Positions 31,524-64,000 of a stretch of 64,000 bases of DNA are shown here, piece by piece (within the stretch, counting starts at the first letter, position 1; each line of letters starts with the position of its first letter). The notes beneath the pieces are model-generated. The model searched no databases and was not told the DNA's origin. It worked only from the letters and a program-made list of their open reading frames with translations. The translations under genes were made by a program, and so were the position numbers. The stretch covers positions 86,519-150,518 of the forward strand of contig JAAYCX010000012.1 of assembly GCA_012729555.1 (NCBI GenBank), written 5' to 3'. The stretch is from Acidobacteriota bacterium. Its GTDB lineage: Bacteria; Acidobacteriota; UBA6911.

Positions 31524-32077
31524 ACTCCAGATTTCTCCAGGAAGCAGAGAAGCGCGAAAATCGCTGCGGCCACGACCGCCACCACCACCCAGGCGTTGAG
31601 CTTGAGGATCTCGGGAATCGTCCGGGCGCCGAAATCCCCCCGCTCCAGGACCGGTTTCTGCAGGGCGGGATAGGCTGCGGCGAATATCCCGGCCCCGATC
31701 AGGATGCCGAGAACGCCGCCGAACAGGGCGTCGAGCGACCCCTGCCCCACCGCCCCCGCCGCCGTCCCCGGACAGTAGCCCAGGATGCCGAAGCCGAGTC
31801 CGAAGATCAGCCCGCCCGGGACGATGGCGCCCATGGACCCCGGCTTGGGGTGGAGCCGGGCCAGGCCCAGGCTTCGGAGGGCGTGGACCCCGATCATCCC
31901 GGTCAGGACGGCGCTCAGCATGATCTTGACCACCGTAAAATCCTCGAAGAGCAGCTGCCCGATGATGACGTCGAACCGGGTCGCCCCCCCCCTTTGGAGC
32001 AGGAAGCCGAAACCGATCCCCAGGAGGAAGCCCAAAGTCAGCTGCAGCCCTTTCCTGCCATGTATCGCCTCGAGCAT
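31520..32077 (-). CDS. YeeE/YedE family sulfur-compound transporter, second half
   Basis: 185-aa multi-TM protein with GxxxG-rich helices; RBS AAAGGGGGGG; ORF-track N-terminal extension rejected. Confidence 0.6.
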   Translation of the reverse strand: MLEAIHGRKGLQLTLGFLLGIGFGFLLQRGGATRFDVIIGQLLFEDFTVVKIMLSAVLTGMIGVHALRSLGLARLHPKPGSMGAIVPGGLIFGLGFGILGYCPGTAAGAVGQGSLDALFGGVLGILIGAGIFAAAYPALQKPVLERGDFGARTIPEILKLNAWVVVAVVAAAIFALLCFLEKSGV

Positions 32078-32088
32078 GCGCCCCCCTT

Positions 32089-32616
32089 TCAGAGCAGAAC
32101 CCGGTAGATCAGCATCGCGGTGGCGATGCCGCCGGCGAAGAAGCAGACGACGGCGAGCCAGCTGCTCGCCGCCAGCTGCAGCGTCCCGCTGATGCCGTGC
32201 CCGCTCGTGCACCCCCCGGCCCAGCGGGCGCCGATTCCCATCAGAACCCCGCCCGCCAAGGCGACGCCCCAGCGGAGGAGGCCGCTGTCTCCCGCCGCCT
32301 CGCGCCACAGCGGCGGGACCCAGGCCAGTCCGAACCCCCCCGAAAGGAGGGAGGAGAGCAGCGCCCCCAGGACGATGCCCACGACGAGCATCCACTCCCA
32401 GTCGATCACCGGGGCGAACTGCCGGTAATAGGGCTTCTCGACGACCCCTTTTCCCCTGAAGGCCTTTTCGATCATCCCGCTGCTGCGCGCGAACGCGGTC
32501 GAACAGCCGATGGGCTTGTCCGAGAGCAGGAAAGCGAGCCAGCTCAAAACGCCGATGCCGGCCCCGACGGCGTAGGGCGACCAGCGTTCCATCGTCAGCC
32601 AATGCAGCCAATCCAT
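32089..32616 (-). CDS. YeeE/YedE family sulfur-compound transporter, first half
   Basis: Conserved GCTSGHG motif, ~5 TM. Confidence 0.65.
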   Translation of the reverse strand: MDWLHWLTMERWSPYAVGAGIGVLSWLAFLLSDKPIGCSTAFARSSGMIEKAFRGKGVVEKPYYRQFAPVIDWEWMLVVGIVLGALLSSLLSGGFGLAWVPPLWREAAGDSGLLRWGVALAGGVLMGIGARWAGGCTSGHGISGTLQLAASSWLAVVCFFAGGIATAMLIYRVLL

Positions 32617-32673
32617 GGCAACCTCCCGAACCCGATAACGGTTTTCGTCTCCCCCCTCCCCGAGGCGATGTTC

Positions 32674-34086
32674 CTACGAGGTCCTCGGGACGTGCGGCGC
32701 CACGCACATGGGACATTCGGGGCTGAACCCCGCGGCGCTGTATCCCGTCATGCCGCCGGCGACGTTGCACACGTTCGCAAAACCCGCCTGCTTGAGCAGG
32801 GAGGCCGAAAGGCTGGAGCGGTGCCCCGTGCTGCAGATCACGGCCACCGGCCGGCTCTTCTTCAGGGAACCGTGCCGGGTACGCAGGTCGGGAGCGGGAA
32901 TATTGACGGCGCCCTCGATATGAACGGCTTCGTACTCGCCGGCGGCCCGCACATCGACCAGCGTGAGTTCCGACCGCCCTTTCATGAGCTGGTTCAATTC
33001 CCGGACCGAAACCTGCGGCACGTGCCCGGTCGGGAGCCCTTGGCGCGACCACTCGAACATGCCGCCGTCGAGATACCCCACGACGCGGTCCAGGCCGACG
33101 CGCCGGAGCAGGACGCCGGCCTCGTAGGCCTCCTCGCCCGATCCGGCCACGAGCAGGATGTCGTGGTCGGGCGGGAGGACCCAGCCGGCGAAGGTGGAGA
33201 AATTCCCGCTGATGTCGATGTTGTACGCGCCGGGGACATGCTGCCCGCCGAAGGCGTCGTAGCTCCGGATGTCGAGCACGATCGTGTTCTTCTTTCCCGC
33301 GGCCTTGCTGAACCGCGCGGGGTCCATCAGGAGAATGCCGGGGAGGGTGTGGACCCTGGCGGGCCCCTTGCCGTTGATGGCGCTGCAGCGGCTGAAATGG
33401 TCCGGGGCTGCCGGCATGTCGGTGGTCAGCGAGCGGATGAACTGCTCGCGGTCCGGGATCTGCAGCGCCGGGTTGCAGCGCCGCTCGTACCCGATCGTCG
33501 TCCAGCGTTTCGCCCCCATGGCGCGCCCGCAAAGGCTGCCGGCGCCGTGGGCGGGATAGACGTCGCAGAAATCGGGAAGCGCCATGAGCTTGCCGTGGAG
33601 GCTGTCGTAGAGCTTATGGGCCAGATCGCGCGCCTTGCCGGGGAAGAGGTCGGGCCGGCCGACGTCGCCGACGAACAGGGTGTCCCCGCAGAAAACGGCC
33701 GCCGGCTCCTTTCCGCGGCTGCGGTCGGTGACGACATAGCTGATATGCTCCGGGGTATGGCCCGGGGTCTCCAGCACCCGGATGCTCATGTTTTCGATCC
33801 GGAAACTGTCCCCTTCCGCGACCGCGCGGTGCCTGAAGCGGCATTTGGCCGATTTGGGGGCGTAGATCACCGCCCCGGTGGCGTCCGCCAGGTCCAGGTG
33901 CCCGGAAATGAAATCGGCATGCAGATGGGTTTCCAGGATATGGGTGATCTTCATCCCCATCTCCTCCGCGGCGTGCAGGTACACTTCGATGTCGCGCTGC
34001 GGGTCCACGATGGCACAGGTGTCCGTCCCGCCGAGGAGGTAGGAACTGTGCGCAAGGCCTTTCACGAAAAACTGTTCTACATACAT
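32674..34086 (-). CDS. Persulfide dioxygenase (MBL fold) fused to tandem rhodanese domains (CstB-like)
   Basis: MBL metal motif THLHADFISGH, two rhodanese domains with C-terminal catalytic CSTGHRS. Confidence 0.8.
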   Translation of the reverse strand: MYVEQFFVKGLAHSSYLLGGTDTCAIVDPQRDIEVYLHAAEEMGMKITHILETHLHADFISGHLDLADATGAVIYAPKSAKCRFRHRAVAEGDSFRIENMSIRVLETPGHTPEHISYVVTDRSRGKEPAAVFCGDTLFVGDVGRPDLFPGKARDLAHKLYDSLHGKLMALPDFCDVYPAHGAGSLCGRAMGAKRWTTIGYERRCNPALQIPDREQFIRSLTTDMPAAPDHFSRCSAINGKGPARVHTLPGILLMDPARFSKAAGKKNTIVLDIRSYDAFGGQHVPGAYNIDISGNFSTFAGWVLPPDHDILLVAGSGEEAYEAGVLLRRVGLDRVVGYLDGGMFEWSRQGLPTGHVPQVSVRELNQLMKGRSELTLVDVRAAGEYEAVHIEGAVNIPAPDLRTRHGSLKKSRPVAVICSTGHRSSLSASLLKQAGFANVCNVAGGMTGYSAAGFSPECPMCVAPHVPRTS

Positions 34087-37389: not shown

Positions 37390-39423
37390 TCACTTTCGGG
37401 CATCGTCCAGGCTTTCCGCGGTCAGCGACGCGATATCGATGACACGCATGCTCTCGTCGACATTGAGCAGCTTCAGCGAATCCCCGAGCATGTGCATGCA
37501 GTAGGCGCAGCCGGTCACGATCGTATCCGCACCCGCTTCATGCGCCTGCCGGACGCGCAGGTTGTTGATCCGCTCCCCCCGCTTCAGGTCCATGAAATAA
37601 TGCCCTCCCCCCGCGCCGCAGCAGAGGCTCTTTTCGCGCCTGTTTTTCATTTCGGCGAGCTCCGCGCCCGGGATCGCCCGGAGCACCGAGCGGGGGGCGT
37701 CGTAGATCCCCTGGTAGCGGCCGAGGTAACAGGGGTCATGGTACACCATCCGCCCCCTCCCGCTCCCCGGCCGGATCCTGCCGGACGCCATCAGCCTCTC
37801 GATGTACTCGGTGTGGTGAACGACATTGTACGAGGCCCCGAACTGGGGGTATTCGTTCTTGAAAACGTTATAGCAATGGGGACACCCGGTCAGGAGCGTG
37901 TGGAACCCGCGCTGTCCGAGCAGCTCGATCTGTTCCCGGGCCGCCTGCTGAAACACCATCTCCTGCCCCAGGATACGGGCGGGGTCGCCGCAGCACCTCT
38001 CGTCCGCGCCGAGAACGCCGTAATCCACGCCGCAGCGCTCTAGCAGGCGGCAAAGGTCCTCGGCGATCCTGTGCTTCTGGGGATCGAACGTCACGCAGCA
38101 GCCGATCCAGTACAGGACATCGACCGACTCCCCCGGCTTGACCACGCGCAGCCCGGCCCGTTCGATCCAGTCGGTCCGTTCCGACTGCGGGCCGAAGGGG
38201 TTGCCTCCGGTCTCGAACAGGCGCAGGGCGCGGCCCGCTTCCTCAGGAATGCGCCCCTGGATCAGCACCTCGTTGCGCCGCAGCTCCATCAGGGTATCCA
38301 CGTGCTCGATCATGGCGGGGCAGACCTCCACGCAGGCGGCGCAGGTCCGGCAGTGCCAGATGAACTCCTCGTCGAACGCCCTGCCCACGATATCGGCCTT
38401 CTCCCCCTCCTCCGCGCCCGCCGCCTCGTCGAGCTGGGCCTTCATGCGCGCGATCAGCTGCCGCGGGGAAAAATAGTCCCGGTCCGCCATGTAGGCGGGG
38501 CAGACCTCGTCGCAGCGTCCGCACAGGATGCAGGCGTCCAGGTCCAGGCGCTGCTTCCAGCTGAACTCCTCCGGTTTCTGGATCCCGATCCGGATCTCCT
38601 CGCTTTCGGCGCTCTCCATCAGCTTCTCGATGTCCTGGCGCCGGAGCTCCCCCCGCGGCCCGAGCTTGGAGAGGAAGGCGTTGGTCGGCAGCGCCAGCAT
38701 GTGAAAGAACTTGGTGTAGGGAATGAGGGCGATCCAGCCCATGACCAGGACGGTGTGGAGCCACCATAGCGCCGCATGCGCCCCCCGGGCGGTTTCCCCG
38801 GCCATCCCCGCAAAAATCGGGCTGAGGCCCCACCCCACGAACGAGAGCTCCTTCCAGGGATCCCCGTTGGCCCCGATCCTCGCCCCCTCGACCAGGTAGC
38901 CGGTCACGACCAGGGCGGCGACCAGGAGGAGCACCAACCCGTCTTCACGGGCGACGGGGAGCGTCCCCGGCCTGGCGACATACCGGCGCCAGGCGGCCAT
39001 GCCCAGGCCGGCCAGGATCAAGAGCCCGGCCAGCTCGCTCGCCACGGAAAAGAAGACGTAGACCCCCCCCTTGAAGATCTCGAGATCCAGGCCGAACAGG
39101 AGGTTCCCATCATACTGGACCATGACGATCAGGGTGGTGATGAAAAGAACGAGGAAGGAGTAGAAGAGCAGGCCGTGCAGGAGTCCCGGGTAGAAATTCC
39201 GGCGCACCCGGTTCTGGAGCAGCGTCTCGCCCAGGAGGATCTTCAGGCGCTTTCCCCAGTCGGAAAATCTCTCGCCGTCCTCCTTCCCCCGGCGCCAGGA
39301 CCGCACGCGCCGGCACATTCCCCAGGCAAAGACGGCGACGGCAGCGGCAAACAGCACATACATCACCCAGGCCTGGGAGACATTCCACATCAGGGGGCGG
39401 GTAGCTTCGGAAAGGGGGGGCAT
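37390..39423 (-). CDS. Membrane-bound Fe-S oxidoreductase: NarI/HdrE-like cytochrome b fused to HdrD-like 2x[4Fe-4S] plus CCG domains
   Basis: N-terminal ~6 TM with conserved His; ferredoxin motifs CILCGRCDEVCP and CRTCAACVEVCP; CCG motifs (CCVTFD, CCGDP, CPHC, CCGAGGG, CAYC). Confidence 0.75.
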   Translation of the reverse strand: MPPLSEATRPLMWNVSQAWVMYVLFAAAVAVFAWGMCRRVRSWRRGKEDGERFSDWGKRLKILLGETLLQNRVRRNFYPGLLHGLLFYSFLVLFITTLIVMVQYDGNLLFGLDLEIFKGGVYVFFSVASELAGLLILAGLGMAAWRRYVARPGTLPVAREDGLVLLLVAALVVTGYLVEGARIGANGDPWKELSFVGWGLSPIFAGMAGETARGAHAALWWLHTVLVMGWIALIPYTKFFHMLALPTNAFLSKLGPRGELRRQDIEKLMESAESEEIRIGIQKPEEFSWKQRLDLDACILCGRCDEVCPAYMADRDYFSPRQLIARMKAQLDEAAGAEEGEKADIVGRAFDEEFIWHCRTCAACVEVCPAMIEHVDTLMELRRNEVLIQGRIPEEAGRALRLFETGGNPFGPQSERTDWIERAGLRVVKPGESVDVLYWIGCCVTFDPQKHRIAEDLCRLLERCGVDYGVLGADERCCGDPARILGQEMVFQQAAREQIELLGQRGFHTLLTGCPHCYNVFKNEYPQFGASYNVVHHTEYIERLMASGRIRPGSGRGRMVYHDPCYLGRYQGIYDAPRSVLRAIPGAELAEMKNRREKSLCCGAGGGHYFMDLKRGERINNLRVRQAHEAGADTIVTGCAYCMHMLGDSLKLLNVDESMRVIDIASLTAESLDDARK

Positions 39424-49888: not shown

Positions 49889-51490
49889 CTACTCCGCCGA
49901 CGCCTTCTGCTTCTGGCGGTATTCCTCCTTGGAGCATGAGAACTGCTTCTCGATCTGCTCGCGGAACACGGGCCCGGAATTATAGGTGCAGAACGGGTAG
50001 AGGCGCTTGTCCGGCGTGGAGTAGTGGATGACGCAGCGCTTCACCCGCTCCACGTCGTAGTTGTAGCCGTCCATGAAATGCATGCCGGCCACCATGAGGG
50101 TCTTGTAGGTGTAGGTGCCGTCGTTGGCCCCGCGCCCCGCCTTCTTGTCGAGCAACCCTTCGATCGTCTGCCCGAGCTTGGTCAGCGTCAGGCCTTCCGG
50201 CGCCTGGCTCGCATCGAAATGCTTGTTGGCGCTCGAGAAGAGGCTGAACTTGCTCAGGTTGTTGTAGAGCGACTTGAAGGTGGTCCGGTTCTTGAGCTTG
50301 TCCGCCTGTTTCTGGATGTCGTCGAAAAGCCCCTTTATGTCGAGGAAACGGGTGACGGGCGTCGGCTTCCGGTTCTGGTCCACGAAGAAGTAGGTCCCGA
50401 TCCCGCAGAGCGGGTGGCAGGAGACCATGACGTTGGGTTCGTTTCTGAGGGCCTGGATCAGTTCGGTGATCGGCGTGGTGCAGGAGAGGGGGAACCAGTC
50501 CTCCCTGGAGGTGTACCCCAGGGTGTTCACCCCTTCCGCCAGGTCGGAGAGCGTGTAGCGCATCCGGTCCCGCTCCGCCTGGTCGATCCGGCCGGTGATC
50601 GCCACGGGCTGGAAGCTGATCCCGGAACAGACGTCGATGGTGTCCAGCGCGAACTGGACGATCTTCGGGACCTGGTCGTCGTTGACCCCCTTGACGATGG
50701 TCGGGACGTAGACGATCTTGAGCCCCGCCTTGCGGACGTTGTCGATCGCCTTCATCTTGATGTCGAGCAGGTCCTTGCGCCCCCGGATCTTCCCGTACAG
50801 TTCGGGGTCGAGCCCGTCGAACTGCAGGTAGAGGGTGTGGAGCCCCGCCTCGCGCGATTTTTCCGCGAAGGAATCCTCGGCGAACTTCAGGCCGTTGGTG
50901 GCGCACTGCACGTGGGAGAAACCCATCTCGTTGGCCTTGGCCAGGATACGGAACCAGTCGGGGTGCAGGGTGGGTTCGCCGCCGGCGAACTGCACGACGC
51001 GGCCCGCGACCGGGCGGGAATCACGCAGGGTCTGCAGCGTGTCCACGATCTGCTCGAAGGAGGGCTCGTAGATGTAGTCCTGGACGCTCGCGTTGGCGAA
51101 ACAGATCGGGCAGGCGAGGTTGCAGCGGTTGGTCAGATCCACGTTGGCCAGCACCGTGTGGCTGGCGTGCAGGTTGCACATGCCGCAGTCTTCGGGACAC
51201 GATTTCGCGTCGGGAATGGCCGGGTTGGACACGCCGCAACCGACATCGCGGTTCCACGCCATCATGCGATGAAAATATTCGGCATGCGACAGGAGGGTGT
51301 CCCTGAAGGAACCATGCTCGGGACAGGTCTTCTCCATGATGATCTTGCCGTCCTCTTCGAACACCCGGGCCTCCACGTGAACCCCGCATTCGGGGCAAAG
51401 GGAAACCGTCGTATACGGCACGTCACCGGGCAACGGATTGATGGGAGCACCGGTCAGGGTTTTCTTTTGAGACGGAACCTTGGTAGCCAT
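49889..51490 (-). CDS. Radical SAM enzyme with N-terminal rubredoxin-like zinc ribbon and extra Cys clusters (tetraether-lipid-synthase-like?)
   Basis: CNLACPIC (Cx3Cx2C) radical-SAM cluster; N-terminal CPECG...CPEHG; additional Cys clusters (CPEDCGMC, SCHPLCG). Confidence 0.7.
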   Translation of the reverse strand: MATKVPSQKKTLTGAPINPLPGDVPYTTVSLCPECGVHVEARVFEEDGKIIMEKTCPEHGSFRDTLLSHAEYFHRMMAWNRDVGCGVSNPAIPDAKSCPEDCGMCNLHASHTVLANVDLTNRCNLACPICFANASVQDYIYEPSFEQIVDTLQTLRDSRPVAGRVVQFAGGEPTLHPDWFRILAKANEMGFSHVQCATNGLKFAEDSFAEKSREAGLHTLYLQFDGLDPELYGKIRGRKDLLDIKMKAIDNVRKAGLKIVYVPTIVKGVNDDQVPKIVQFALDTIDVCSGISFQPVAITGRIDQAERDRMRYTLSDLAEGVNTLGYTSREDWFPLSCTTPITELIQALRNEPNVMVSCHPLCGIGTYFFVDQNRKPTPVTRFLDIKGLFDDIQKQADKLKNRTTFKSLYNNLSKFSLFSSANKHFDASQAPEGLTLTKLGQTIEGLLDKKAGRGANDGTYTYKTLMVAGMHFMDGYNYDVERVKRCVIHYSTPDKRLYPFCTYNSGPVFREQIEKQFSCSKEEYRQKQKASAE

Positions 51491-51670
51491 TCACATTCCC
51501 TCGTCGAAATCAGGGGCCGGGCGCGGCAGGCGCCCCACCCATGAGTTATCTCCACTTCACGCCCCCCGCAGGCGGGCAATCCCGCCCGTACGCCGTCCCC
51601 GCGAACCGGCCGGGGGCCAGGGGCCGTAAACCCTGGATTCTACCGTCAACGAGACGGGAGAAACAAGAAA

Positions 51671-52195
51671 TTATCTGTCGGTCCCGAAAGGGGAGCCGGC
51701 GGCCGGAGTCCCCAGGACGCACTGCCAGTACTCCACGTCCAGCCACCGCCCGAACTTCCGCCCCACCCCGTGGAGGCGCCCGGCACGCCGGAAGCCCGCC
51801 CGTTCGTGCAGCCGGACACTGGCCGGGTTCGGGAGGGCGATGATCGCTACGGCATTGACGATCCCCCGCTGCAGGAGGTCCGAAAGGAGATGGGCGTACA
51901 ACCGCCGGCCATACCCTTTGCCGGTCGCATCCGGCCTCAGGTAGATGGTGGTTTCCGCGCTGAACCGGTAGGCGGAGCGATCCTTGAATAGGTCGGCGTA
52001 GGCGTAGCCGATGACCTCCCCCCCCGCTTCCCCCACGAACCAGGGGTAGCGGGCGGCGACGCGGTCGACGCGCCGCGCCATCTCCTCGACGGTCACCTCC
52101 TCCTCTTCGAAGGTAACGATGGTACGGCGCACGAAGTGGTTGTATATCCCGGCCACGGCGGCCGCGTCTTCAGCAAGGATGGGACGGATGCGCAC
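51671..52195 (-). CDS. GNAT family N-acetyltransferase (PAT-like)
   Basis: AcCoA motif A region KGYGRRLYAHLL; 174 aa. Confidence 0.75.
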   Translation of the reverse strand: MRIRPILAEDAAAVAGIYNHFVRRTIVTFEEEEVTVEEMARRVDRVAARYPWFVGEAGGEVIGYAYADLFKDRSAYRFSAETTIYLRPDATGKGYGRRLYAHLLSDLLQRGIVNAVAIIALPNPASVRLHERAGFRRAGRLHGVGRKFGRWLDVEYWQCVLGTPAAGSPFGTDR

Positions 52196-52602: not shown

Positions 52603-52684
52603 ATTCCCTGATTGCAACGGTTCCCCCCCATCGTCAAATGAGATACAATGCATACCTCGACCGCGTTGGCGGGTGGGGAGAGCG

Positions 52685-55600
52685 ATGAAGAAGCGCTGGA
52701 TCGGACGCATAACCAAGGCGCTGGCGGCACTGGCCGTCCTCGTTGCCCTCATTCCGCTTCTGCTGCTGGCGCCGCCGGTCGGAAACTGGGCGTTCCACAA
52801 GGCGGGCGGATATCTCCGGCGCAGCGCGAAGATCGAACTGCGGGCGGACCGGGTCCGGTTGAACCTGTTCACCGGATCGGTCCGGCTGGAAAACCTGTCG
52901 CTCGCGGCCGCGCGCGCCCCGGGGCTCCCCCCCCTGCTGCGGGCCGATCACGCCTACGCCGACCTCGGCCTGCTCGATGCCGTCAGGGGGGTGTGGACGG
53001 TGGAAACCGTGCGGGTCCACGAGCCCAGGGTGCATTATTTCGTGGGCCCGGACGGGGAAACGAACCTGCCCGAGACGGACGCCTCCGGGGACGCCTCCCT
53101 GGATCTGCGGATTCTCCAGGCCGGCATCACCGACGGCGCCCTGCAATGGGAAGACCGCCGGCGCGGACTGTGGATCGAACTGCCCGGCTGGGATCTTGCC
53201 GTCGAGGGAAACCGGGGGTCGCGCGCGCACCGTATCACCTTCACCGGCGGCCCGGTTTCGACCTTCACCCTGGGGGACCTTTCGATCCCCGTCGATTCCC
53301 TCGGCTTCTCAGGCGTTCTGGACGGCCCCCTATGGCGCATAGACTCGGCCCGGGTCGTTGCCGCCCGGTCCACGCTCGAGTTCGGGGGATCGGTACGGAA
53401 CCTCCGGGAACTGGACCTGGAACTGGCGCCCGGGCTGGATACCGGAGCGATCGCCGAAGCCGCGGGTCACGGGGGCAGGATCGCCGGCCGGGTCTCCGGA
53501 ACAATCAGGGTTCACGGCCCGCTCGACAACCTGCGGATAGAGGGCCGGCTCGCGGGAGATGGGGTGCAGCTGGAGGGGGCGCCTCCGCTCGACCTCCGGC
53601 TTGCCGCGGACCTGGAGTGGGACGCGGCCGGGGACAGGGTGTCGATCCAAAGCCTGGACCTCGCTTCCCCGGAAGGATCGCTCCGCGCCGAGGGGACGCT
53701 CTGCACCGGGGAGGAGTGCGCGGCCAGTGTCCTGAGGGCGCGGCTCCGTGACATCGATCTCCTCCCCTTCTCGCACAGCCTCGGGCTCCCCTTCCGCCTG
53801 GCCGGCCGGGCGGGGGGGACGGTCTCCGTCGAGTGGAGGGGGAAGCCCGTACCTGCAAACCTCCGCGCCGACGCCTCCCTCGAACTCGGGAGCACCCGCC
53901 CGGCGCCGGAAGCCGATCTTCTCCCTGTCTCCGCGACGGTCGACGCGGAGTACGCATCCGGCCGGCTGCGGGGACGGATACGCTCGCTCTCGGTCCTGGG
54001 TGCGCGCGCGGCCGGCGAGTTTTCCCTCCGGTCTTTTCGCACCCTCGAGGGGCGCCTCCAGGGGGAGGCCGCCGACCTGGACGATTCCGCGCAGCAGCTC
54101 GCGCGCTTTCTGGGAAAGCCGGGATCCCGCGCGGGGGTCAGCCTGGCCGGCAACCTGGACTTTGACGTCCGGGCCTCGGGGGAACTGGACGACCTGGAGA
54201 TCGAGGCCAGGCTGGACGCCCCGTCGCTCGCGGTCGCGGGCCTCGGGGGGATGGGGACCGAGGCGCGCGCCGTCTACCGAAACGGGGTCCTCTCGTTTCA
54301 GAACAACCTGCGTCTTCCCGGCGAGAGCCTGCTGGAGACCCAGGGCACGCTCGATTTCGGAGGGGAGGAGCCCCGCTTGCGCCTCGCGGCCAAATCCGCG
54401 GCCCCGGTGCCGCTCGAGGTCCTCAACTCCCTGCTCGGGCGCTCGATTCCGATGTCGGGCACCCTGGAGACCTCGCTGCGCCTGGACGGCCCCGTCGACA
54501 ACCTCGCCGGGGATCTCTCCATCACCGGAGAAGCCCTCTCCCTGTACGCACTGCCCCTGGGACGGCTGGACATCCTCCTCGGCCTGGCCGACCGGGAGAT
54601 CCGGTCCAGCCGCATACGGTTGTCGCGGAGTCCCGAGCATCCATCGAGCGATCTGCTGGCGGCCCGCGTTTCCTACGCCCTGGACAGCGGCCGCTACGAA
54701 CTCGAGGCGGAGGGGACGGGGCTGGCCCTCGTCCCCGCGCACCTTCCCGGCGGAGCCCAAATCAACGGGACCCTCTCGCTCGAGGCTTCGGGAACGGGGA
54801 CGATCGAAAATCCTTCCTTCGACCTCGAAATCGGATCGAACGACCTGCACGCATGGCGCCAACCCCTGGGCCCGGTTTCGGTCACGGCCCGGATCCGGGG
54901 GAAGGAAGCCGGCATCCGGGCGCTGGCACCCGATCTGGATCTTTCCTCCGACGCCACCCTGACACTGAGGGCCCCCTGGCCCTTCCGGGTCACCGTCGAG
55001 GCGCGGGACTCCGACCTGGCCGCCGCCGGACTCGAGTGGCGCGGCCGGCCGGTGACCGGGTCGCTCAGGGCGGACATCTCGGGTTCCGGAGAGTTGGGCG
55101 ACCTGGAGGCGTCCCGGATCGAGGCGCTGATCGAAGAGGTGACGGCGCGGGCGGGCGAACTCGAGGTGCGCACCGGGGCGCCGGCCGGAATCCACTATCG
55201 GGGCCGCTCCCTGGAGTTCGCACCGCCCCTCGCCCTGGCCGTCGGCCGTTCGGCGATCGAGCTCGGCGGCCGCCTCCCCGTCCGGGCGGGGGCGCCGGCC
55301 GGAACCGTCGACCTGAAAGGGCGGCTCGACCTGGCGGACACCGGAACAGTCTTCACCCCCCCAGAAGGGTTCGGGCTCGAAGGAGTCCTCGATCTCGACC
55401 TGGTGCTCTCCGGCGCCTACGGGGATTTTGCCGTCACGGGCGGATTCGGCCTGGACGACGGAACGATACGCATTCCCAGGGCCGCCGCACCCATGACGGA
55501 AGCCTCCGTCCGGGGAAAGATCGAGAGCGGGGTGCTGGTCCTCGAGCGGGCGGGCGCGAAATGGGGGAGAGGCCGCATCGGGCTCTCGGGCACCGTCCCC

Positions 55601-58600
55601 CTCGGGTTGCTGCCCGAAGACCTTCCCCTGGAATTTGCGCGCGGGACAGGGCCGGCCGAGTTCGTCCTCGACGTTGAAGATTTCGCCCCGGAAGCGACGG
55701 GGTTCCTTCCCGAGGGAATTTCGGGCCTGGTTTCGCTCCGCGCCACGGGGCGCGCCGACCATCCGGACCTCCAGGCCCTGGACGGCGAAATCCGGTTCGG
55801 CGCCCTGGACCTCAAGGTCGACACCATCGGCTTCAGCCAGGCGGAACCGGTCCTGATCGAAATCCGCCGCGGCGTCGCCACCATCGCCCGACTGGCGCTC
55901 TCCGGGCCGGAAACCCGTATCGAGGCGTCCGGAACGGCGGGAGTGTACCCGCGGGGGCCGCTGGACCTCGCCGTCGAAGGCTCCCTCGACGCCGGGCTGC
56001 TCGGCGTTTTCAGCGAGGGGGTGAAAACGGCGGGCGAACTGCGGATCGACGCGCGGGTCGCGGGCTCGCTCGACGCCCCGGTGCTTTCGGGCCGGGCGGA
56101 AATGGACAACGGGAAGCTGGCCCTCCAATCCCCCCGGATCGCGGCCGACGACCTGAAGATGCGGCTGGACCTCACCTCCGATTCCATCATCGTGCGCGAA
56201 CTCACCGGCGTCCTCAACGGCGGCGCCATGTCGGTCGAGGGTTCGATCGGGTACCGTGACGGAATCCTCAACGGCATAGATCTCGAGGCGCGCGTGCAGG
56301 ACGTCTTCCTCGAATTCCCCGAGGGGCTGAAATCGGCGTCGAGCGGGAACCTGACCATGAAATCGGGGGAAGACACCATCGTCGTCGGCGGCAGCCTGCG
56401 GATCATGGAAAGCGCCTACCGGGAATCGATCGAAGTCGGGGGGCAGCTGATCAACTACCTGAAATCGCAGCAGGTGGTGACCCTCGACGAGGAACCCAAT
56501 CCCTTCCTGGACCGGCTCCGGTTCGACATCGCCGTCCGCACCTCGACCCCGCTGCTGGTGCAGAACAACATCGCCAGGGTCGAAGCCTCCGCCACCAATC
56601 TCCGCCTTGTCGGAAGTTATGCCGACCCCTCGGTCGTCGGCCGCGTCACCCTCGGCGAGGGGGGGGAGATCGTCCTGAACCAGCAAAGCTACTACATCAA
56701 CCGGGGGGTGATCACCCTGGTGAACCAGAGCCGCATCGAACCGGAATTCAACATCCAGGCGCAGACGAAGATCGACATCTACGAGATCACGCTCCAGCTG
56801 ATCGGGAACCCCGAACGGATGTCCACCCTGCTCTCTTCCGACCCGCCGCTTTCGGAGAGGGACATCCTCTCGCTCCTCCTCACGGGCAAGACCATCGCCG
56901 AGACCCAGGGGCGCGAAATGCAGATGGCCCGGACCCAGGCGCTGTCGCTGATCGCCGGACAGGCGGGTGCGGGAGTCACCAACGAGGCGCGCAAGGCGCT
57001 CCACCTGAGCACCTTCCGGATCGACCCGGGGCTGATCGCCTCGGAATCCAACCCGGGGGCCCGCCTGACGATCGGGGAGGACGTCACGCGCGACCTCAGC
57101 CTCGTCTATTCCATGAACCTCGTCAACGGGGGGGACCAGATCTGGGCGGCCGAGTACGATATCGGCCGGCGCCTCTCGACCCAGGCCACCAAGCAGCAGG
57201 ACAACAGCTACCGCTTCGAGTTCCGCCATGACCTCCGCTTCGGGGGCGCGGGGGCGCGCCGCGGGGCGCGGCGGCAGGCGGCCCGGTTCGAGATCGGATC
57301 GGTCCATTTCCAGGGGGAGGAGGCGCACTCCGAAAAGGACCTTATGGACCGGTTCAAGAACAAGGCGGGCGACCGGTACGAGTTTCAGAAAGTCCAGAAA
57401 GGGCTGGACCGCCTGCACGACTTCTACTTCAGCCAGGACCGCCTGGAAGCCGATATCCGGCTCCAGCGCGAAACCGGGGACAGGACCGTCGACCTGAAGG
57501 TCGGCATCGACCCCGGGCCGGTGGTGCAGTTCGACTACGGCTCCTTCCCCCTAGGCAAGGATGTACGCGAGCAGGTCGCCAGGGCGTGGGCGGACGGGGT
57601 TTTCGAGGCCGAAAGACTGGACGAGGCGGCGCTCGTCATCCGCCGCTCCCTGACCGAAAGCGGCTTCCTCCAGGCCACGGTCGCTGCTGAAATGGCGGAG
57701 GCGGACGGGCGGAAGCAGGTCCGGTTCACCATCGACTCCGGCCCCCGGTACGCCGAGATTCCCCTCTCCTTCCCGGGGGCAAAGGGGATTTCCCCCGGCG
57801 CCCTCGGCGAACTCGTGGAGGACGCCGACCTGGAGCGCGAGATCTACGTCAACCCGAAAAAGGTGGCCGATTTTCTCCGGCGCTACTACCGCAACCGCGG
57901 GTACCTCCAGGCGGAGGTCTCCCCGCCGCAGTTCCGGCCGGCCGCACGGGAAACGGTGATCGCGGTTACCGAGGGGCCGCTGTTCGTGATCGGCGAGCTC
58001 GAGTTCTCCGGCAACAAGGTCTTCAGCTACGACGAACTCTGGATGGTCATCCCCACCTCGAGCGGCAGCGTCTACAACCCGGACTCGCTGAGGGAATCGG
58101 TCCGGGAGATGGAGAACCTCTACCACGGCCGGGGGTACAACGACGTCACCATCACCTTCCGGGTAGTCCAGGACACCTCCAGGACCCGGGCCGACGTGAA
58201 CTTCCAGATCACCGAACGGCGGCAGTCGGTCATCCGCGATATCGTGATCGAGGGGAACCGGGACACCCGGCCGGGATTCGTCACCCGGCAGATCGACTTC
58301 CGGGTCGGCGACCCCCTGGATTACGAAAAGATCAACGAAGCCCGGAGGCGGCTGTACTCCACGGGGGTGTACACGACCGTCGATTTCCAGATGGAGGAAC
58401 TCCCCTCCGAGGCGCCGGCCCCGGAGCGAAAGGAGATGCGGGTGCGGGTCCGGCTGCGCGAGACCCAACCCTACCGCCTGCAGTACGGGCTCTTCTACGA
58501 TACCGACCGCGGCGTCGGCGGCCTGGTGGAGGCGCAGCACCTGAACCTCCTGGGGCGGGCGACCAACCTCGGCCTCCGCCTCCGCTACGACTCCGACCTC

Positions 58601-59491
58601 AAGGAGGGGCGGCTGTACTATCACCAGCCCTTCGTGACCCGGCTCCACCTCAAGATGGACGCCAGCGCGTTCTGGCAGCAGGAGACCCGCTCCTTCTTCT
58701 CGGCGAAGCGGATCGGGTTCTCCCTGATGCAGGAGCGGGAGCTTCCTCGGGAGTTCCGCCTCGATTACGGCTACCGCTACGACCATGTCCGCTGGAACGG
58801 ACTGCCGCCCGACCCGATCCTCTTCCAGGCCAGCGACCCCGTCGCCCGGCTGACCGGGACCCTGACCCGCGACACGCGCGACAGCGTGCTCGACCCCACG
58901 CGCGGCGAGTTCACCTCCCAGACGTTCGAATTCGGCCCCCGCTGGCTCGGGTCCGAGGTCGGTTTCGCCCGTTACTCGGGGCAGTATTTCCGCTACTTCC
59001 CCCTGGACAAGTACCTGGGGAAACCGATCGTGGACCGAAAGGGGGAACCGCTGCCGACGAACTTCGTCTACGCCGCGGCGCTGCGCCTGGGGCTGACGTC
59101 CCCCTTCGGGAAAAAATCGCTGATCGCGCCCGAGCGCTTCTTCGCCGGGGGCGGCACCACCATGAGGGGGTTCGAGCAGGACCTGATGGGGCCGGTGGAG
59201 GAGCAGCCGGACGGCAGCCTGCGGCCGAGCGGGGGGGAAGCCATGTTCCTGCTCAACAACGAACTCCGCTTCCCGATCGTGGGCATCCTCCAGGGGGTGG
59301 CGTTCCTCGACATCGGCAACGTCTACAGGAAACTGACCGACTTCGATTTCACCCTGCGCAAGACGGCCGGGGCGGGGCTCCGGCTGAAGATCCGGTCGAT
59401 CCCCCTGAGGTTCGACTACGGGTTCAAGCTCGACCGGAAAACGGGCGAGAGCGGGGGCGAATTCTTCTTCAGCATCGGGCAGGCGTTCTAG
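52685..59491 (+). CDS. Single-chain TamB-like / TamA(Omp85)-like fusion protein (translocation and assembly module)
   Basis: N-terminal signal-anchor then ~1500 aa TamB/AsmA-like beta-rich repeats ending in DUF490-like region; then POTRA repeats and Omp85 barrel motifs (FFAGGGTTMRGF, FLLNNELRFP) ending in C-terminal Phe; one uninterrupted 2268-codon ORF. Confidence 0.7.
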   Translation: MKKRWIGRITKALAALAVLVALIPLLLLAPPVGNWAFHKAGGYLRRSAKIELRADRVRLNLFTGSVRLENLSLAAARAPGLPPLLRADHAYADLGLLDAVRGVWTVETVRVHEPRVHYFVGPDGETNLPETDASGDASLDLRILQAGITDGALQWEDRRRGLWIELPGWDLAVEGNRGSRAHRITFTGGPVSTFTLGDLSIPVDSLGFSGVLDGPLWRIDSARVVAARSTLEFGGSVRNLRELDLELAPGLDTGAIAEAAGHGGRIAGRVSGTIRVHGPLDNLRIEGRLAGDGVQLEGAPPLDLRLAADLEWDAAGDRVSIQSLDLASPEGSLRAEGTLCTGEECAASVLRARLRDIDLLPFSHSLGLPFRLAGRAGGTVSVEWRGKPVPANLRADASLELGSTRPAPEADLLPVSATVDAEYASGRLRGRIRSLSVLGARAAGEFSLRSFRTLEGRLQGEAADLDDSAQQLARFLGKPGSRAGVSLAGNLDFDVRASGELDDLEIEARLDAPSLAVAGLGGMGTEARAVYRNGVLSFQNNLRLPGESLLETQGTLDFGGEEPRLRLAAKSAAPVPLEVLNSLLGRSIPMSGTLETSLRLDGPVDNLAGDLSITGEALSLYALPLGRLDILLGLADREIRSSRIRLSRSPEHPSSDLLAARVSYALDSGRYELEAEGTGLALVPAHLPGGAQINGTLSLEASGTGTIENPSFDLEIGSNDLHAWRQPLGPVSVTARIRGKEAGIRALAPDLDLSSDATLTLRAPWPFRVTVEARDSDLAAAGLEWRGRPVTGSLRADISGSGELGDLEASRIEALIEEVTARAGELEVRTGAPAGIHYRGRSLEFAPPLALAVGRSAIELGGRLPVRAGAPAGTVDLKGRLDLADTGTVFTPPEGFGLEGVLDLDLVLSGAYGDFAVTGGFGLDDGTIRIPRAAAPMTEASVRGKIESGVLVLERAGAKWGRGRIGLSGTVPLGLLPEDLPLEFARGTGPAEFVLDVEDFAPEATGFLPEGISGLVSLRATGRADHPDLQALDGEIRFGALDLKVDTIGFSQAEPVLIEIRRGVATIARLALSGPETRIEASGTAGVYPRGPLDLAVEGSLDAGLLGVFSEGVKTAGELRIDARVAGSLDAPVLSGRAEMDNGKLALQSPRIAADDLKMRLDLTSDSIIVRELTGVLNGGAMSVEGSIGYRDGILNGIDLEARVQDVFLEFPEGLKSASSGNLTMKSGEDTIVVGGSLRIMESAYRESIEVGGQLINYLKSQQVVTLDEEPNPFLDRLRFDIAVRTSTPLLVQNNIARVEASATNLRLVGSYADPSVVGRVTLGEGGEIVLNQQSYYINRGVITLVNQSRIEPEFNIQAQTKIDIYEITLQLIGNPERMSTLLSSDPPLSERDILSLLLTGKTIAETQGREMQMARTQALSLIAGQAGAGVTNEARKALHLSTFRIDPGLIASESNPGARLTIGEDVTRDLSLVYSMNLVNGGDQIWAAEYDIGRRLSTQATKQQDNSYRFEFRHDLRFGGAGARRGARRQAARFEIGSVHFQGEEAHSEKDLMDRFKNKAGDRYEFQKVQKGLDRLHDFYFSQDRLEADIRLQRETGDRTVDLKVGIDPGPVVQFDYGSFPLGKDVREQVARAWADGVFEAERLDEAALVIRRSLTESGFLQATVAAEMAEADGRKQVRFTIDSGPRYAEIPLSFPGAKGISPGALGELVEDADLEREIYVNPKKVADFLRRYYRNRGYLQAEVSPPQFRPAARETVIAVTEGPLFVIGELEFSGNKVFSYDELWMVIPTSSGSVYNPDSLRESVREMENLYHGRGYNDVTITFRVVQDTSRTRADVNFQITERRQSVIRDIVIEGNRDTRPGFVTRQIDFRVGDPLDYEKINEARRRLYSTGVYTTVDFQMEELPSEAPAPERKEMRVRVRLRETQPYRLQYGLFYDTDRGVGGLVEAQHLNLLGRATNLGLRLRYDSDLKEGRLYYHQPFVTRLHLKMDASAFWQQETRSFFSAKRIGFSLMQERELPREFRLDYGYRYDHVRWNGLPPDPILFQASDPVARLTGTLTRDTRDSVLDPTRGEFTSQTFEFGPRWLGSEVGFARYSGQYFRYFPLDKYLGKPIVDRKGEPLPTNFVYAAALRLGLTSPFGKKSLIAPERFFAGGGTTMRGFEQDLMGPVEEQPDGSLRPSGGEAMFLLNNELRFPIVGILQGVAFLDIGNVYRKLTDFDFTLRKTAGAGLRLKIRSIPLRFDYGFKLDRKTGESGGEFFFSIGQAF

Positions 59492-60294
59492 CCGGCATCC
59501 TTTCCCCGGCCGCGGTGGACCCAGCGGAAGACGGGGTCGTGCCCCTCCTCCCCGGGAGCGCGCCGGCGCCTGAGGTCCGCGAGGTTGCGCCCCATGATCG
59601 AGTGGACGTCCTCCATGAGACGGCGCTTTCCCCCCCTCGAGTAGGATGCCAGGTCGATCGGGCGGTCGATCCGGATACGGATGACGGTGCCGGGGTTCAC
59701 CTCGAGGGTCCCGGGCACGATCACGCGGCTGCTGCCGTCGAGCGTCACCGGGACCAGAGGGACGCCCGCGCGCAGGGCCAGGGCGAAGGCCCCGCCGTGG
59801 AAGGGGCCCAGTTCCCCCGTCCGGCTCCGCGTCCCTTCCGGGAAGGCGATGGCGCTGACCCCCCCGGCGATCGTCCCGGCCGCGGCCACGATGCTCCTGG
59901 CCGCCTCGCGGGGATTTTCCCGGTCGATGGGGATGTAGCCCGAACGCCGCATGTGCCATCCCATGAACGGGACGCTGAAAAGCTGCTTTTTGGCGATCCA
60001 GCGGAACTGGATCGGCAGATGCGCCGCGAGCGACAGGATGTCGTGCAGCCCGCTGTGGTTGGCCACGAAGATCTGCGGCCGGCGGCGATCGACGTGTTCC
60101 AGCCCCTCGATCTCCACGCGGGCGCGGCTGAGCCAGAGGTTGTCGCGGGACCAGCGCCGCATGCAGAAGTGCTGGATGCGGCCGCCCCGGGACAGGAGGC
60201 TCCCCAGAAGCGACACCGTCGCCCAGAAGGCGGTGCTGAGCCCGCAGCCGGTCCAGCACCAGATCGTATACGTCCTCGCCCTTGCCTTTTTCAT
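59488..60294 (-). CDS. plsC: 1-acyl-sn-glycerol-3-phosphate acyltransferase
   Basis: HxxxxD motif ANHSGLHD and FPEGTRS motif; N-terminal TM. Confidence 0.75.
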   Translation of the reverse strand: MKKARARTYTIWCWTGCGLSTAFWATVSLLGSLLSRGGRIQHFCMRRWSRDNLWLSRARVEIEGLEHVDRRRPQIFVANHSGLHDILSLAAHLPIQFRWIAKKQLFSVPFMGWHMRRSGYIPIDRENPREAARSIVAAAGTIAGGVSAIAFPEGTRSRTGELGPFHGGAFALALRAGVPLVPVTLDGSSRVIVPGTLEVNPGTVIRIRIDRPIDLASYSRGGKRRLMEDVHSIMGRNLADLRRRRAPGEEGHDPVFRWVHRGRGKDAG

Positions 60295-62700: not shown

Positions 62701-64000
62701 GTGACCGAGACTCAAGCCGCCGCCGCGGGGACCCGCAAGCGCCAGACCGCGGAAAGCATGGCCGAGCGCCAGCGTGAAATTTCGATATCGGAATTTTTCA
62801 GCAAGAACCGGCACCTGCTGGGATTCGACAACCCGCAGAAGGCGCTGCTGACCGCCGTCAAGGAGGCCGTGGACAACTCGCTCGACGCCTGCGAGGAAGC
62901 GGGCTTCCTCCCCTCGATCCGCATCGCCATCCGGCAGGTCGGAGAGGACCGCTTCCGCGTGTCGGTGGAGGACAACGGGCCCGGGATCGTCAAGGCGCAG
63001 ATCCCGAAGATCTTCGGCAAGCTCCTGTACGGATCGAAGTTTCACACTCTCAAGCAGGCGCGGGGGCAGCAGGGGATCGGCATTTCGGCGGCCGGAATGT
63101 ACGGGCTGCTCACCACCGGGAAATCGATCGTCATCACCTCCCGCACCGGCGCGGGCAAGCCCGCCCACTACTACGAGATCCAGATCGACACCCGGAAGAA
63201 CACGCCCCAGATCATCACCGACCGGATCATCGACTGGGAGCCCCCGCACGGGACCCGGGTGGAAATCGAGCTGATCGGGACCTACAAGAAAGGGCGGCAC
63301 TCGGTCGAGGACTACGTGCGCCAGACGGCCATCGCCAACCCCCACTGCGAAATCTTCTACACCCCCCCCGACGCGGACGAACCGATGCACCTGGTCCGGG
63401 GCTCGGACCTGCTGCCGCCGGAGCCGCGCGAAATCAGGCCCCACCCCTACGGGGTGGAACTCGGCGTGCTCATCCGGATGATGAAGGAAACCTCCGCCCG
63501 CCAGCTGGGCGCCGCCCTGCAGAAGGATTTTTCGCGCGTGAGCGCCAAAATCGCGGCGGAGATCTGCAAGGCGGCCGGGCTGCGGCCCAGCGCCAACCCC
63601 CACACCCTCCAGGGGCAGGAGACCGAGCGGCTCTACAAGGCGATCAACGGGGTGAAGATCATGAGCCCGGCGACCAACTGCCTCTCCCCCATCGGGGAGG
63701 AGCAGATCCTGGCGGGCCTCCGGAAGGAGATCGACGCCGACTTCTTCACCGCCATCACGCGCGCGCCGGCGGTCTACCGGGGCAACCCCTTCCAGATCGA
63801 GGTCGGGCTCGCCTACGGCGGGCGCCTCCCGGGGGACGAGCTGGTGGACCTGCTTCGCTTCGCCAACCGCGTCCCCCTGCAATACCAGCAGTCGGCCTGC
63901 GCCATCACCAAGGCCGTCCTCGGCATCGACTGGCGCAGCTACGGCCTGCCGCAGTCCAAGGGGGCGCTCCCGACGGGGCCCGTGGCGCTGTTCGTGCACA
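62701..64000 (+). CDS. top6B: DNA topoisomerase VI subunit B (3' partial at window end)
   Basis: Collinear with archaeal Top6B: [17 protein letters not shown]...[19 protein letters not shown] (Bergerat ATPase), [22 protein letters not shown]; no stop before window end. Confidence 0.8.

Follow-up and report, generated by a model that had tools for sequence, protein, structure and literature searches.

An intact tetraether lipid synthase (Tes) family enzyme encoded by an uncultured acidobacterium from an anaerobic digester

Overview

The 64-kb stretch of acidobacterial DNA analyzed here (the window) encodes an intact radical SAM protein of the Tes/GDGT-MAS family. Its host belongs to family UBA6911 (group 18 Acidobacteria), genus Ga0209509, and is an uncultured organism from an anaerobic digester. 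By analogy with the archaeal enzymes, the protein is probably functional and would join the glycerolipid tails of its host into membrane-spanning or macrocyclic lipids. The first-pass annotation of this region had suggested homology to the tetraether lipid synthase, and profile, sequence, fold and metal ligands all agree with that suggestion.

Results

Gene structure and family assignment

The 533-residue radical SAM protein described in the first-pass annotation corresponds to a complete open reading frame on the reverse strand, in which the Pfam Radical_SAM domain is recognized (Table 1). GC content at the three codon positions is 0.56/0.40/0.89, like that of real genes of this window, which has 67% GC. 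Independent gene calls on at least 23 contigs of ENA and JGI assemblies, including Ga0209509_1000043, give the identical 533-residue protein, which is thus neither an assembly artefact nor a chance reading frame. The 180 nt that separate the gene from the upstream GNAT gene contain no recognizable sigma-70-like promoter, and a scan for promoters and terminators between positions 49700 and 52400 gave no signal exceeding the shuffled expectation.

Table 1. Features of the Tes-family gene and its product, in window coordinates
Feature	Position	Strand	Basis or detail
Tes/GDGT-MAS-family radical SAM CDS, complete	49889..51490	-	533 aa, ATG start
Shine-Dalgarno-like GAGGGA	51497..51502	-	6 nt 5' of ATG; read from the letters, weak evidence
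Rubredoxin-like mononuclear Fe domain, residues 26-66	51293..51415	-	Pfam PF23545 Zn_ribbon_HMPTM, E 8.7e-17
N-terminal auxiliary [4Fe-4S] motif, C98-X3-C102-X2-C105-X2-H108	51167..51199	-	Alignment to M. jannaschii C73/C77/C80 and conserved His
Radical SAM core, residues 119-281	50648..51136	-	Pfam PF04055 (Radical_SAM), E 1.5e-27
CX3CX2C motif, C123/C127/C130	51101-51124	-	Within radical SAM core
C-terminal auxiliary cluster domain, residues 362-501	49988..50407	-	C362, C486, C501, labile M470, Y490

Against the NCBIfam equivalog model NF045702, 'tetraether lipid synthase Tes', the protein scores 562 bits (E 9.9e-169) where the cutoff is 450, and the match spans residues 28-519 and model positions 2-484 of 486. 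The archaeal reference set consisted of this model, the sequence of the Methanocaldococcus jannaschii crystal structure and 16 archaeal homologs, among them one from a Methanosarcinales MAG that is 41% identical to the query. The M. jannaschii GDGT-MAS (MJ0619; PDB 7TOL and 7TOM) is of the same length class and aligns with residues 24-531 at 42% identity (7tol, E 2.9e-127). The first-pass annotation had pointed to M. acetivorans Tes for the HMM and sequence comparison; the expected Tes match was obtained, with M. jannaschii, the source of the solved structure, as the reference instead.

An AlphaFold model of the query (pLDDT 82.9, pTM 0.88) superposes on the crystal structures, with a Foldseek E of 7e-46, TMq of 0.81-0.82 and TMt of 0.87 over 512 columns of the alignment to 7tol/7tom. 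The four-domain fold of the solved GDGT-MAS is reproduced, with the rubredoxin-like domain followed by the N-terminal cluster, the radical SAM core and the C-terminal cluster. The next-best structural match is MoaA with a TM score of 0.36, a value that no other radical SAM structure exceeds. The best matches are therefore to Tes throughout and not to the unrelated radical SAM subfamilies that had been considered at the outset.

Metal sites and SAM contacts

All four metal sites are complete in the query, comprising 12 cysteines, two histidines, the labile methionine and the conserved tyrosine, and the ligand sets are identical to those of M. jannaschii GDGT-MAS. The multi-cluster architecture with a rubredoxin-like site that had been proposed from the sequence holds, with a refinement of detail: the rubredoxin-like and N-terminal sites each comprise three cysteines and one histidine, and the C-terminal site has three cysteines and the labile methionine. 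The N-terminal ribbon noticed earlier (CPECG...CPEHG) is present as C32-P-E-C35-G and C56-P-E-H59-G. Its ligands C32, C35, C56 and H59 align with C9, C12, C33 and H36 of the M. jannaschii enzyme and are unchanged across 71 homologs, save for gaps arising from truncated contigs.

The two or more further cysteine clusters of the first-pass annotation can be located at C98/C102/C105, accompanied by H108, and at C362/C486/C501, accompanied by M470. The former residues, H108 included, are invariant in bacterial and archaeal homologs alike. In the C-terminal domain, M470 and Y490 align with Met 439 and Tyr 459 of the M. jannaschii enzyme. C362, C486 and C501 are the sole invariant cysteines of this domain, and C438 and C456 of the M. 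jannaschii enzyme are not conserved; from this pattern of conservation, the three residues are the putative ligands of [4Fe-4S]C.

The radical SAM motif reported as CNLACPIC is found as C123-N-L-A-C127-P-I-C130. Of the 12 contacts to SAM or 5'-dA in M. jannaschii GDGT-MAS, 11 are identical in the query: F131, N133, A134, G171, Y221, D225, V262 and T264 within the core, and Q294, T299 and R301 slightly past it. The remaining contact, Ser 271 in the archaeal enzyme and Ala 297 here, is made by the backbone. Compared with M. jannaschii GDGT-MAS, the query has ~23 extra residues at its N terminus and six additional cysteines (85, 196, 288, 337, 358 and 519) that are peculiar to the UBA6911 clade.

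Placement among bacterial homologs

In a neighbour-joining tree, which is built roughly from distances, carries no support values and allows coarse placement only, the query is nested in a large bacterial Tes clade, apart from the archaeal sequences. The same clade holds the homologs from Ca. Solibacter usitatus, Ca. Koribacter versatilis and Bryobacteraceae MAGs, which are 54-58% identical to the query (54% for a Solibacteraceae homolog) and have the same Pfam architecture. NCBI names the Bryobacteraceae proteins 'tetraether lipid synthase Tes', and the same role as brGDGT synthase has been proposed for the acidobacterial homologs. The query comes from a different class-level lineage, and from an anaerobic digester whereas these relatives come from soil. 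The soil setting that the first-pass annotation mentioned for bacterial homologs thus does not apply to this host; an anaerobic-digester lineage fits an oxygen-sensitive radical SAM enzyme. The paper describing UBA6911 genomes nowhere mentions lipids.

Genomic neighbourhood

Within the 64-kb window, the tes gene stands alone, outside any lipid operon. Open reading frames from 76 homologous loci and the window were clustered, and the order TamB-fusion...Tes...GGDEF recurs only in the relatives at 95% and 91% identity, the two nearest, with synteny lost past ~90% identity. The clustering revealed no conserved lipid gene near tes in the close clade. In the wider clade, the recurring neighbours are an M50 protease, LptE, HolA, AprA and a MarR-like protein, which by eye look like housekeeping genes. 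Two other neighbour families (c3 and c42) were dropped because they proved to be reading frames antisense to Tes or to the Ger-like gene, in DNA of high GC content.

A bacterial brGDGT pathway would combine Tes or Mss with a partner that forms the ether bond, either Ger/PlsAR or Elb (elbD/agps). No ger, elb or mss-like partner was found in the 64-kb window. A tblastn search for Ger-like BBD gave no match in the window or in the close-clade flanks, and among the ~50 Pfam-annotated window genes there is neither an elb/agps-like gene nor one resembling GGGPS, DGGGPS or G1P dehydrogenase. The window does encode a bacterial PlsC-type acyltransferase. Unlike the archaeal Tes proteins MJ0619, Maeo_0574 and MA_1486, the query has a bacterial host with bacterial lipid genes, so its substrate is presumably not archaeol. 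MA_1486 also differs in that its gene adjoins GGR/ferredoxin, whereas the query tes does not.

In eight other bacterial loci, tes adjoins a co-oriented gene for a Ger-like BBD protein (an ester-to-ether lipid reductase). This adjacency is seen in Vicinamibacterales-type Acidobacteriota and in Planctomycetales, with the Ger-like gene present, for example, in locus L034. These eight loci support the view that enzymes of the bacterial clade act on lipids.

Discussion

Proposed mechanism and substrates

A mechanism can be proposed for the query by extension from the archaeal enzyme (Lloyd 2022). Reductive cleavage of SAM by the RS cluster would yield a 5'-deoxyadenosyl radical that takes a hydrogen from the last carbon of a glycerolipid tail accommodated in the hydrophobic tunnel. 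The resulting alkyl radical would be parked on the C-terminal cluster as a C-S bond; in the archaeal enzyme, it is this cluster that captures the first substrate radical (Lloyd 2022). A second SAM would then produce a radical on another tail, likewise at its terminal carbon, and this would attack the parked carbon to form a C(sp3)-C(sp3) bond, at a cost of two SAM per bond.

The substrates would be glycerolipids made by the host itself. Their tails, in ester or ether linkage, are probably of the iso-branched C15 type, with isopropyl ends that may mimic the phytanyl end. Iso-fatty-acid and phytanyl termini have the same structure (Zeng 2022). In the GDGT-MAS crystals, ester-linked phosphatidic acid from E. 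coli occupies both lipid pockets, and the head-group pocket is non-specific. Coupling of such tails would yield membrane-spanning lipids of the iso-diabolic-acid or branched GTGT-GDGT type, or macrocyclic lipids. S. usitatus, which carries Tes homologs, makes brGDGTs, brGTGTs and iso-C15 diethers.

Alternative readings

A lesser but real chance is that the query is a true Tes-family enzyme whose product in the cell is something other than a membrane-spanning glycerolipid, either because it acts on another hydrophobic substrate or because it is cryptic or rarely expressed. There are apparent precedents, as the M. acetivorans paralog MA_1114 gives merely traces of macrocyclic archaeol, and Halobacteria possess Tes homologs and do not make GDGTs; membership of the family is thus no guarantee of tetraether formation. 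The solitary position of the query gene, its lack of conserved synteny and the six clade-specific cysteines also point this way. However, all catalytic and cofactor residues are kept, an argument for unchanged chemistry at a long alkyl terminus, and related bacterial tes genes adjoin ger-like genes for ether lipids. We regard this reading as unlikely, and prefer the coupling of host glycerolipid tails.

It is considerably less probable that the bacterium itself makes archaeal-type isoprenoid diethers, which the query would convert into true isoprenoid GDGTs. The only proven substrates of the family are archaeol-type lipids, archaeal-type lipid synthesis has been proposed for some FCB-group bacteria, and some bacteria are reported to encode archaeal lipid genes (PMC7852524). 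Nevertheless, the enzymes expected of such a pathway (GGGPS, DGGGPS and G1P dehydrogenase) have no counterpart among the annotated window genes, where a PlsC-type acyltransferase is found instead, and the query sits in a broad bacterial clade separate from the archaeal sequences. Moreover, no bacterium is known to make such GDGTs.

Two further readings would remove the protein from lipid coupling altogether, and both are highly improbable. Many database homologs bear the legacy name '7,8-dihydro-6-hydroxymethylpterin dimethyltransferase' (HMPTM), still used by JGI and echoed in the name of the Pfam ribbon domain, which would make the query a class D radical SAM pterin methylase. The structure of GDGT-MAS, the founding member, contradicts this, since its active site is formed by a long, hydrophobic tunnel for lipids and is unfit for a pterin; in addition, the activity was not reproducible (Lloyd 2022), and the host is a bacterium with no methanopterin pathway seen in the 64-kb window.

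Derivation from a neighbouring radical SAM family (TrsS, a SPASM peptide maturase or a MoaA-like protein) can be dismissed with near certainty, because the partial TrsS match and the generic core matches that might suggest it all score below their cutoffs, and the corresponding structures align over the core only. TrsS (NF045646) is the nearest curated family outside Tes, and its model aligns with the N-terminal ribbon and the radical SAM core. It scores 323.8 bits against a cutoff of 490 and covers residues 27-323 only (the N-terminal 60%), leaving the C-terminal cluster domain of the query unmatched. TrsS is also a (seleno)protein, whereas the query gene has no in-frame UGA that could serve as a selenocysteine codon. 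The models for SPASM/twitch peptide maturases, MoaA and NirJ/Ahb reach at most 78 bits, against cutoffs of 180-725, and match the core alone.

Significance for branched GDGT synthesis

Bacterial Tes homologs, including acidobacterial ones, have been known since 2022 and were proposed to make brGDGTs. The hypothesis is in print, papers published between 2022 and June 2026 explicitly call it unvalidated, and our literature searches turned up no direct experiment on a bacterial Tes homolog. Bacterial copies of Tes are already well catalogued, and the query is an ordinary member. As one among thousands of homologs, and in an uncultured host, it is no better a test case than S. usitatus, which is cultured and a demonstrated brGDGT maker; the loci in which tes and a ger-like gene are neighbours may serve better for choosing a test system.

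The question is of wide interest, as brGDGTs rank with the molecular thermometers and pH meters most often applied to past climates, and neither their producers nor the coupling enzyme is yet established. Bacterial Tes and Mss are the candidate enzymes. Mss, known from Thermotoga maritima and Thermoanaerobacter ethanolicus, is a radical SAM enzyme of anaerobic bacteria shown to make diabolic or iso-diabolic acids by joining a pair of fatty-acyl tails tail-to-tail. Judged by its published description, it is a likely functional analogue of the query, although it is related to Tes only remotely, and no mss homologs were found in the acidobacterial genomes covered by a published study. Tes homologs, in turn, occur in just three of 14 Acidobacteria that produce iso-diabolic acid, and Tes is therefore not the general acidobacterial coupling enzyme.

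With the query, a fully intact Tes is on record for a lineage of anoxic engineered and sulfidic habitats, settings in which brGDGTs are formed but classical soil Acidobacteria are scarce. We tentatively suggest, as a possibility short of an expectation, that group 18 (UBA6911) of digesters and sulfidic sediments builds lipids of the iso-diabolic or branched-GDGT type by means of a stand-alone Tes. If so, UBA6911 would be a previously unrecognized anaerobic acidobacterial source of brGDGTs, and the Tes route, as against the Mss route, would work in strict or facultative anaerobes.

Tes family membership

The tes product is almost certainly a member of the Tes/GDGT-MAS family of tetraether lipid synthases, as judged by all sequence and structure criteria tested. 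With the NCBIfam equivalog model NF045702 ('tetraether lipid synthase Tes') it reaches 562 bits, above the curated cutoff of 450, and virtually the whole model is covered; the next-ranked models are an intein-containing Tes variant and TrsS. TrsS was rejected at 323.8 bits (cutoff 490), the N-terminal part alone being matched, as were MoaA, NirJ/Ahb, PqqE and SPASM peptide maturases, which reach at most 78 bits against cutoffs of 180–725. Among PDB sequences, the sole strong match is M. jannaschii GDGT-MAS (7TOL/7TOM; E 2.9e-127), with query residues 24–531 aligned to chain residues 21–518 (42% identity, 494 aligned positions). An AlphaFold model built from 42 homologs (pLDDT 82.9, pTM 0.88) superposes on 7TOL/7TOM with a TM score of 0.81–0.87 over ~512 columns; the second-best structure, MoaA, reaches 0.36 over the core only. 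The homology to Tes proposed in the first-pass annotation is thus borne out, the best matches being to this family and not to unrelated radical SAM proteins. The name '7,8-dihydro-6-hydroxymethylpterin dimethyltransferase' persists on many JGI homologs, as does HMPTM for the Pfam ribbon domain; both are a legacy annotation, superseded and contradicted by the 2022 structure.

The ORF lies at exactly the coordinates proposed for a 533-aa radical SAM protein, and its codon-position GC (0.56/0.40/0.89) is like that of genuine genes of the window (~67% GC). Pfam assigns residues 119–281 to a Radical_SAM core (E 1.5e-27) and residues 26–66 to the N-terminal zinc-ribbon family PF23545 (E 8.7e-17), where both ribbon motifs given in the first-pass annotation are found; at least two further Cys clusters had been noted there, and two more conserved groups are present. 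A GAGGGA lies 6 nt 5' of the ATG, and a promoter and terminator scan around tes gave no signal above chance.

Metal sites and SAM contacts

GDGT-MAS has four metal sites, as defined by Lloyd et al. 2022 (PMC9433317) and in a 2026 review (PMC13459092). In M. jannaschii numbering, C9/C12/C33/H36 coordinate a rubredoxin-like Fe, C73/C77/C80 together with a His ligate [4Fe-4S]N, the radical SAM cluster sits on CX3CX2C, and [4Fe-4S]C has three Cys ligands plus the labile Met439; Tyr459 is fully conserved. We transferred these sites to the query through an HMMER alignment and assessed their conservation with MAFFT across the query and 71 homologs, of which 21 are close relatives, 34 are from other bacteria and 16 are archaeal. 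The query has all four residue sets, and they are essentially invariant in bacteria and archaea, except where truncated contigs leave gaps and for a single Tyr-to-Phe change per domain. For the C-terminal cluster, Met439 is the sole ligand named by Lloyd et al. (PMC9433317). We infer from the alignment that C362, C486 and C501 are its Cys ligands in the query, because they are the only invariant cysteines of the C-terminal domain; M. jannaschii C438 and C456 lack conservation among homologs. Eleven of the 12 listed SAM/5'-dA contacts are identical between the query and the M. jannaschii enzyme, and the twelfth, S271 there and A297 here, contacts the adenine via its backbone.

Six cysteines of the query (85, 196, 288, 337, 358 and 519) are additional to those that bind metal in GDGT-MAS. 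With the exception of C519, they are largely kept within the UBA6911 clade and variable outside it: C196, C337 and C358 each occur in at least 19 of 20 close-clade sequences, and C519 in 8 of the 19 aligned at that position. C358 lies four residues N-terminal of C362.

Features of the window, of the tes product and of homologous tes loci (L numbers, from the 76 compared)
Feature	Position	Strand	Remarks
PIN-domain protein	9671-10087	-	within low-GC patch
FG-GAP-repeat protein	10652-12592	-	646 aa; within low-GC patch
tes	49889-51490	-	533 aa, ATG start
GNAT acetyltransferase	51671-52195	-	ArsN1/phosphinothricin-acetyltransferase-like; 180 nt upstream of tes, same strand
TamB-Omp85 fusion	52673-59491	+	2,272 aa
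PlsC-type 1-acylglycerol-3-phosphate acyltransferase	59488-60294		~8 kb from tes
Topoisomerase VI subunit B-like	62701-63999	+	HATPase_c, Topo-VIb transducer domain; runs off window end
Rubredoxin-like Fe site	C32/C35/C56/H59		CPECG (C32/C35), CPEHG (C56/H59); HMMER, MAFFT
[4Fe-4S]N site	C98/C102/C105/H108		HMMER, MAFFT
Radical SAM cluster site	C123/C127/C130		CNLACPIC; HMMER, MAFFT
[4Fe-4S]C site (Cys ligands putative)	C362/C486/C501, M470, Y490		HMMER, MAFFT
tes with Ger-like gene downstream	L034 (10001-16309), L023, L024, L026, L031, L044		co-oriented
tes with Ger-like gene upstream	L041, L047		co-oriented

Genomic neighbourhood

Among the ~50 annotated window genes, none is lipid-related apart from the PlsC-type gene. 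tes is convergent with a PAS-GGDEF gene and follows the GNAT gene, which is probably unrelated to it; the GNAT product scores 196 bits with the arsinothricin-resistance ArsN1-B model, just under the cutoff of 210, and 144 bits with a phosphinothricin N-acetyltransferase model. Gene order around tes is shared with the 95% and 91% relatives only, and neighbours differ already at 82–87% identity. In the UBA6911-type lineage tes stands alone, without conserved gene context, and Ger-like sequence is absent from the window and from close-clade flanks.

Several other window genes deserve mention. The fusion ORF combines an AsmA/DUF748-TamB-like part (TamB domain 1178–1517), three POTRA repeats and a C-terminal Omp85 barrel (1958–2272). 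TamB is anchored in the inner membrane and TamA/BamA resides in the outer membrane; here the two would therefore form a single polypeptide. A frameshift artefact is ruled out, since independent ENA/JGI assemblies and the relatives at 95% and 91% likewise encode an unbroken product (2,268–2,274 aa); a literature search, judged by titles, turned up no description of a natural TamB-Omp85 fusion. Topoisomerase VI is an archaeal or plant-type enzyme, uncommon in bacteria. A patch at ~9600–12600 has a GC of 0.58 against ~0.67 elsewhere and may have been acquired horizontally. Redox and sulfur genes at 26669–34086 and 37390–39423 (multihaem cytochrome c, ferredoxin-domain protein, SulP sulfate permease with STAS domain, sulfur-transport protein, two rhodanese-domain proteins, and an HdrD/DsrK-like CCG and 4Fe-4S membrane protein) fit the anaerobic, sulfur-linked lifestyle proposed for the UBA6911 family.

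tes loci of other bacteria

In eight bacterial loci outside the close clade, tes directly adjoins, on the same strand, a gene of ~1,050–1,150 aa with two BcrAD_BadFG domains and DUF2229, the 'BBD' core conserved in Ger, the ester-to-ether lipid (glycerol ester) reductase (Sahonero-Canavesi et al.). Six of these loci are from Acidobacteriota (including Vicinamibacterales) and two from Planctomycetales; in four, a ~420–450-aa protein without Pfam match follows the Ger-like gene. Published work reports that tes and ger or elbD occur together at the genome level, and we found no description of physical tes/ger linkage in that literature. The adjacency is new here and supports a bacterial glycerolipid substrate.

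Elsewhere, a second, smaller radical SAM protein (330–370 aa, SPASM/twitch-like Cys-rich C terminus) abuts tes (L025, L029, L032, L036, L039, L052). Its scores stay below the cutoffs of all curated NCBIfam models, the highest being 86 bits with the PTO1314 family (cutoff 306). A MacB/FtsX-type permease, an ABC ATPase and an unannotated ~296-aa protein occur in L025, L036, L039, L048 and L052, in L048 without the second radical SAM protein. Together, these genes may constitute a candidate module for lipid modification and export, with Gms as a possible analogue.

Source lineage and distribution

The neighbours of tes are plainly bacterial (ECF sigma/anti-sigma pair, PAS-GAF-GGDEF, TamB/Omp85 protein, PlsC). 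At least 23 contigs encode the identical Tes protein, and its neighbours are the same each time; among them is Ga0209509_1000043 of JGI 3300026194, the assembly after which 'Ga0209509', a genus in family UBA6911 (group 18 Acidobacteria), is named. Members of this genus come mainly from an anaerobic digester and have a GC above 65%, genomes of ~3.5 Mb and nitrite-ammonifying respiration; a full aerobic chain is encoded in only 6 of 11 genomes.

Ranked by Tes identity, a Zodletone spring MAG (95%) and a digester MAG (91%) come first among the species-representative genomes, followed by other UBA6911-type MAGs (82–87%), two further Acidobacteriota (~67%), Solibacteraceae, Vicinamibacterales and Terriglobia (50–55%), Planctomycetota, Desulfobacterota, Krumholzibacteria, Nitrospinota and Elusimicrobiota (42–52%), and Archaea (36–41%). 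A rough neighbour-joining tree places the query in a tight UBA6911 clade within a large bacterial clade, apart from archaeal sequences. One nominally bacterial Tes (L067, 10001–11431, 'uncultured Eubacteriales' MAG contig CAZLLG010000053.1) falls among archaeal sequences in the distance tree, and its 40% identity to the query is comparable to that of archaeal Tes; the contig is either mis-binned and archaeal or reflects a recent archaea-to-bacteria transfer.

Proposed chemistry and substrate

The query shares fold, cofactor sites and SAM-site conservation with the archaeal enzyme, from which its chemistry can be proposed by analogy. Reductive cleavage of SAM at the radical SAM cluster would yield a radical that takes a hydrogen off the terminal carbon of a lipid tail in a hydrophobic tunnel, and the C-terminal cluster would capture the alkyl radical as a C–S bond. 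A second SAM would then generate a radical on a second tail, which would attack the parked carbon; each C(sp3)–C(sp3) bond formed in this way would consume two SAM.

By this analogy, the query probably couples the bacterium's own glycerolipids tail to tail into membrane-spanning lipids. The substrates would be glycerolipids with iso-branched tails, giving iso-diabolic or branched GTGT/GDGT-type lipids. Besides the tes/Ger-like adjacency, three observations support such a substrate: crystals of the archaeal enzyme contained ester-linked phosphatidic acid from E. coli in both lipid pockets, the enzyme's head-group binding being non-specific; phytanyl and iso-fatty-acid termini are identical; and Solibacter usitatus, which has Tes homologs, makes brGDGTs, brGTGTs and iso-C15 diethers. 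The main rival, which we consider rather unlikely, is a Tes-type enzyme whose physiological product is different or cryptic. Counted against the coupling function, or limiting it, are the presence of a Tes homolog in only 3 of 14 iso-diabolic-acid-producing Acidobacteria, and MA_1114 and the halobacterial homologs, for which family membership is no guarantee of tetraether formation. To these are added the lack of Ger-like sequence in the window and near the close-clade genes, and the statements of papers from 2022, 2025 and June 2026 that bacterial Tes function awaits an assay.

Bacterial Tes homologs are well documented: Zeng et al. 2022 listed 456 and singled out Acidobacteria, Lloyd et al. 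(PMC9433317) also noted them, and in a Black Sea survey 281 bacterial MAGs carried them, 17 of the 97 Acidobacteriota MAGs among these. Some Bryobacteraceae proteins are already named 'tetraether lipid synthase Tes' by NCBI, and more than 7,900 query homologs, a lower bound, were found at E <= 1e-20 among the 8,000 candidates scored. UBA6911 has not been discussed as a Tes carrier, because its genome paper makes no mention of lipids or radical SAM enzymes; Tes in this lineage is thus a small increment to the known bacterial homologs.
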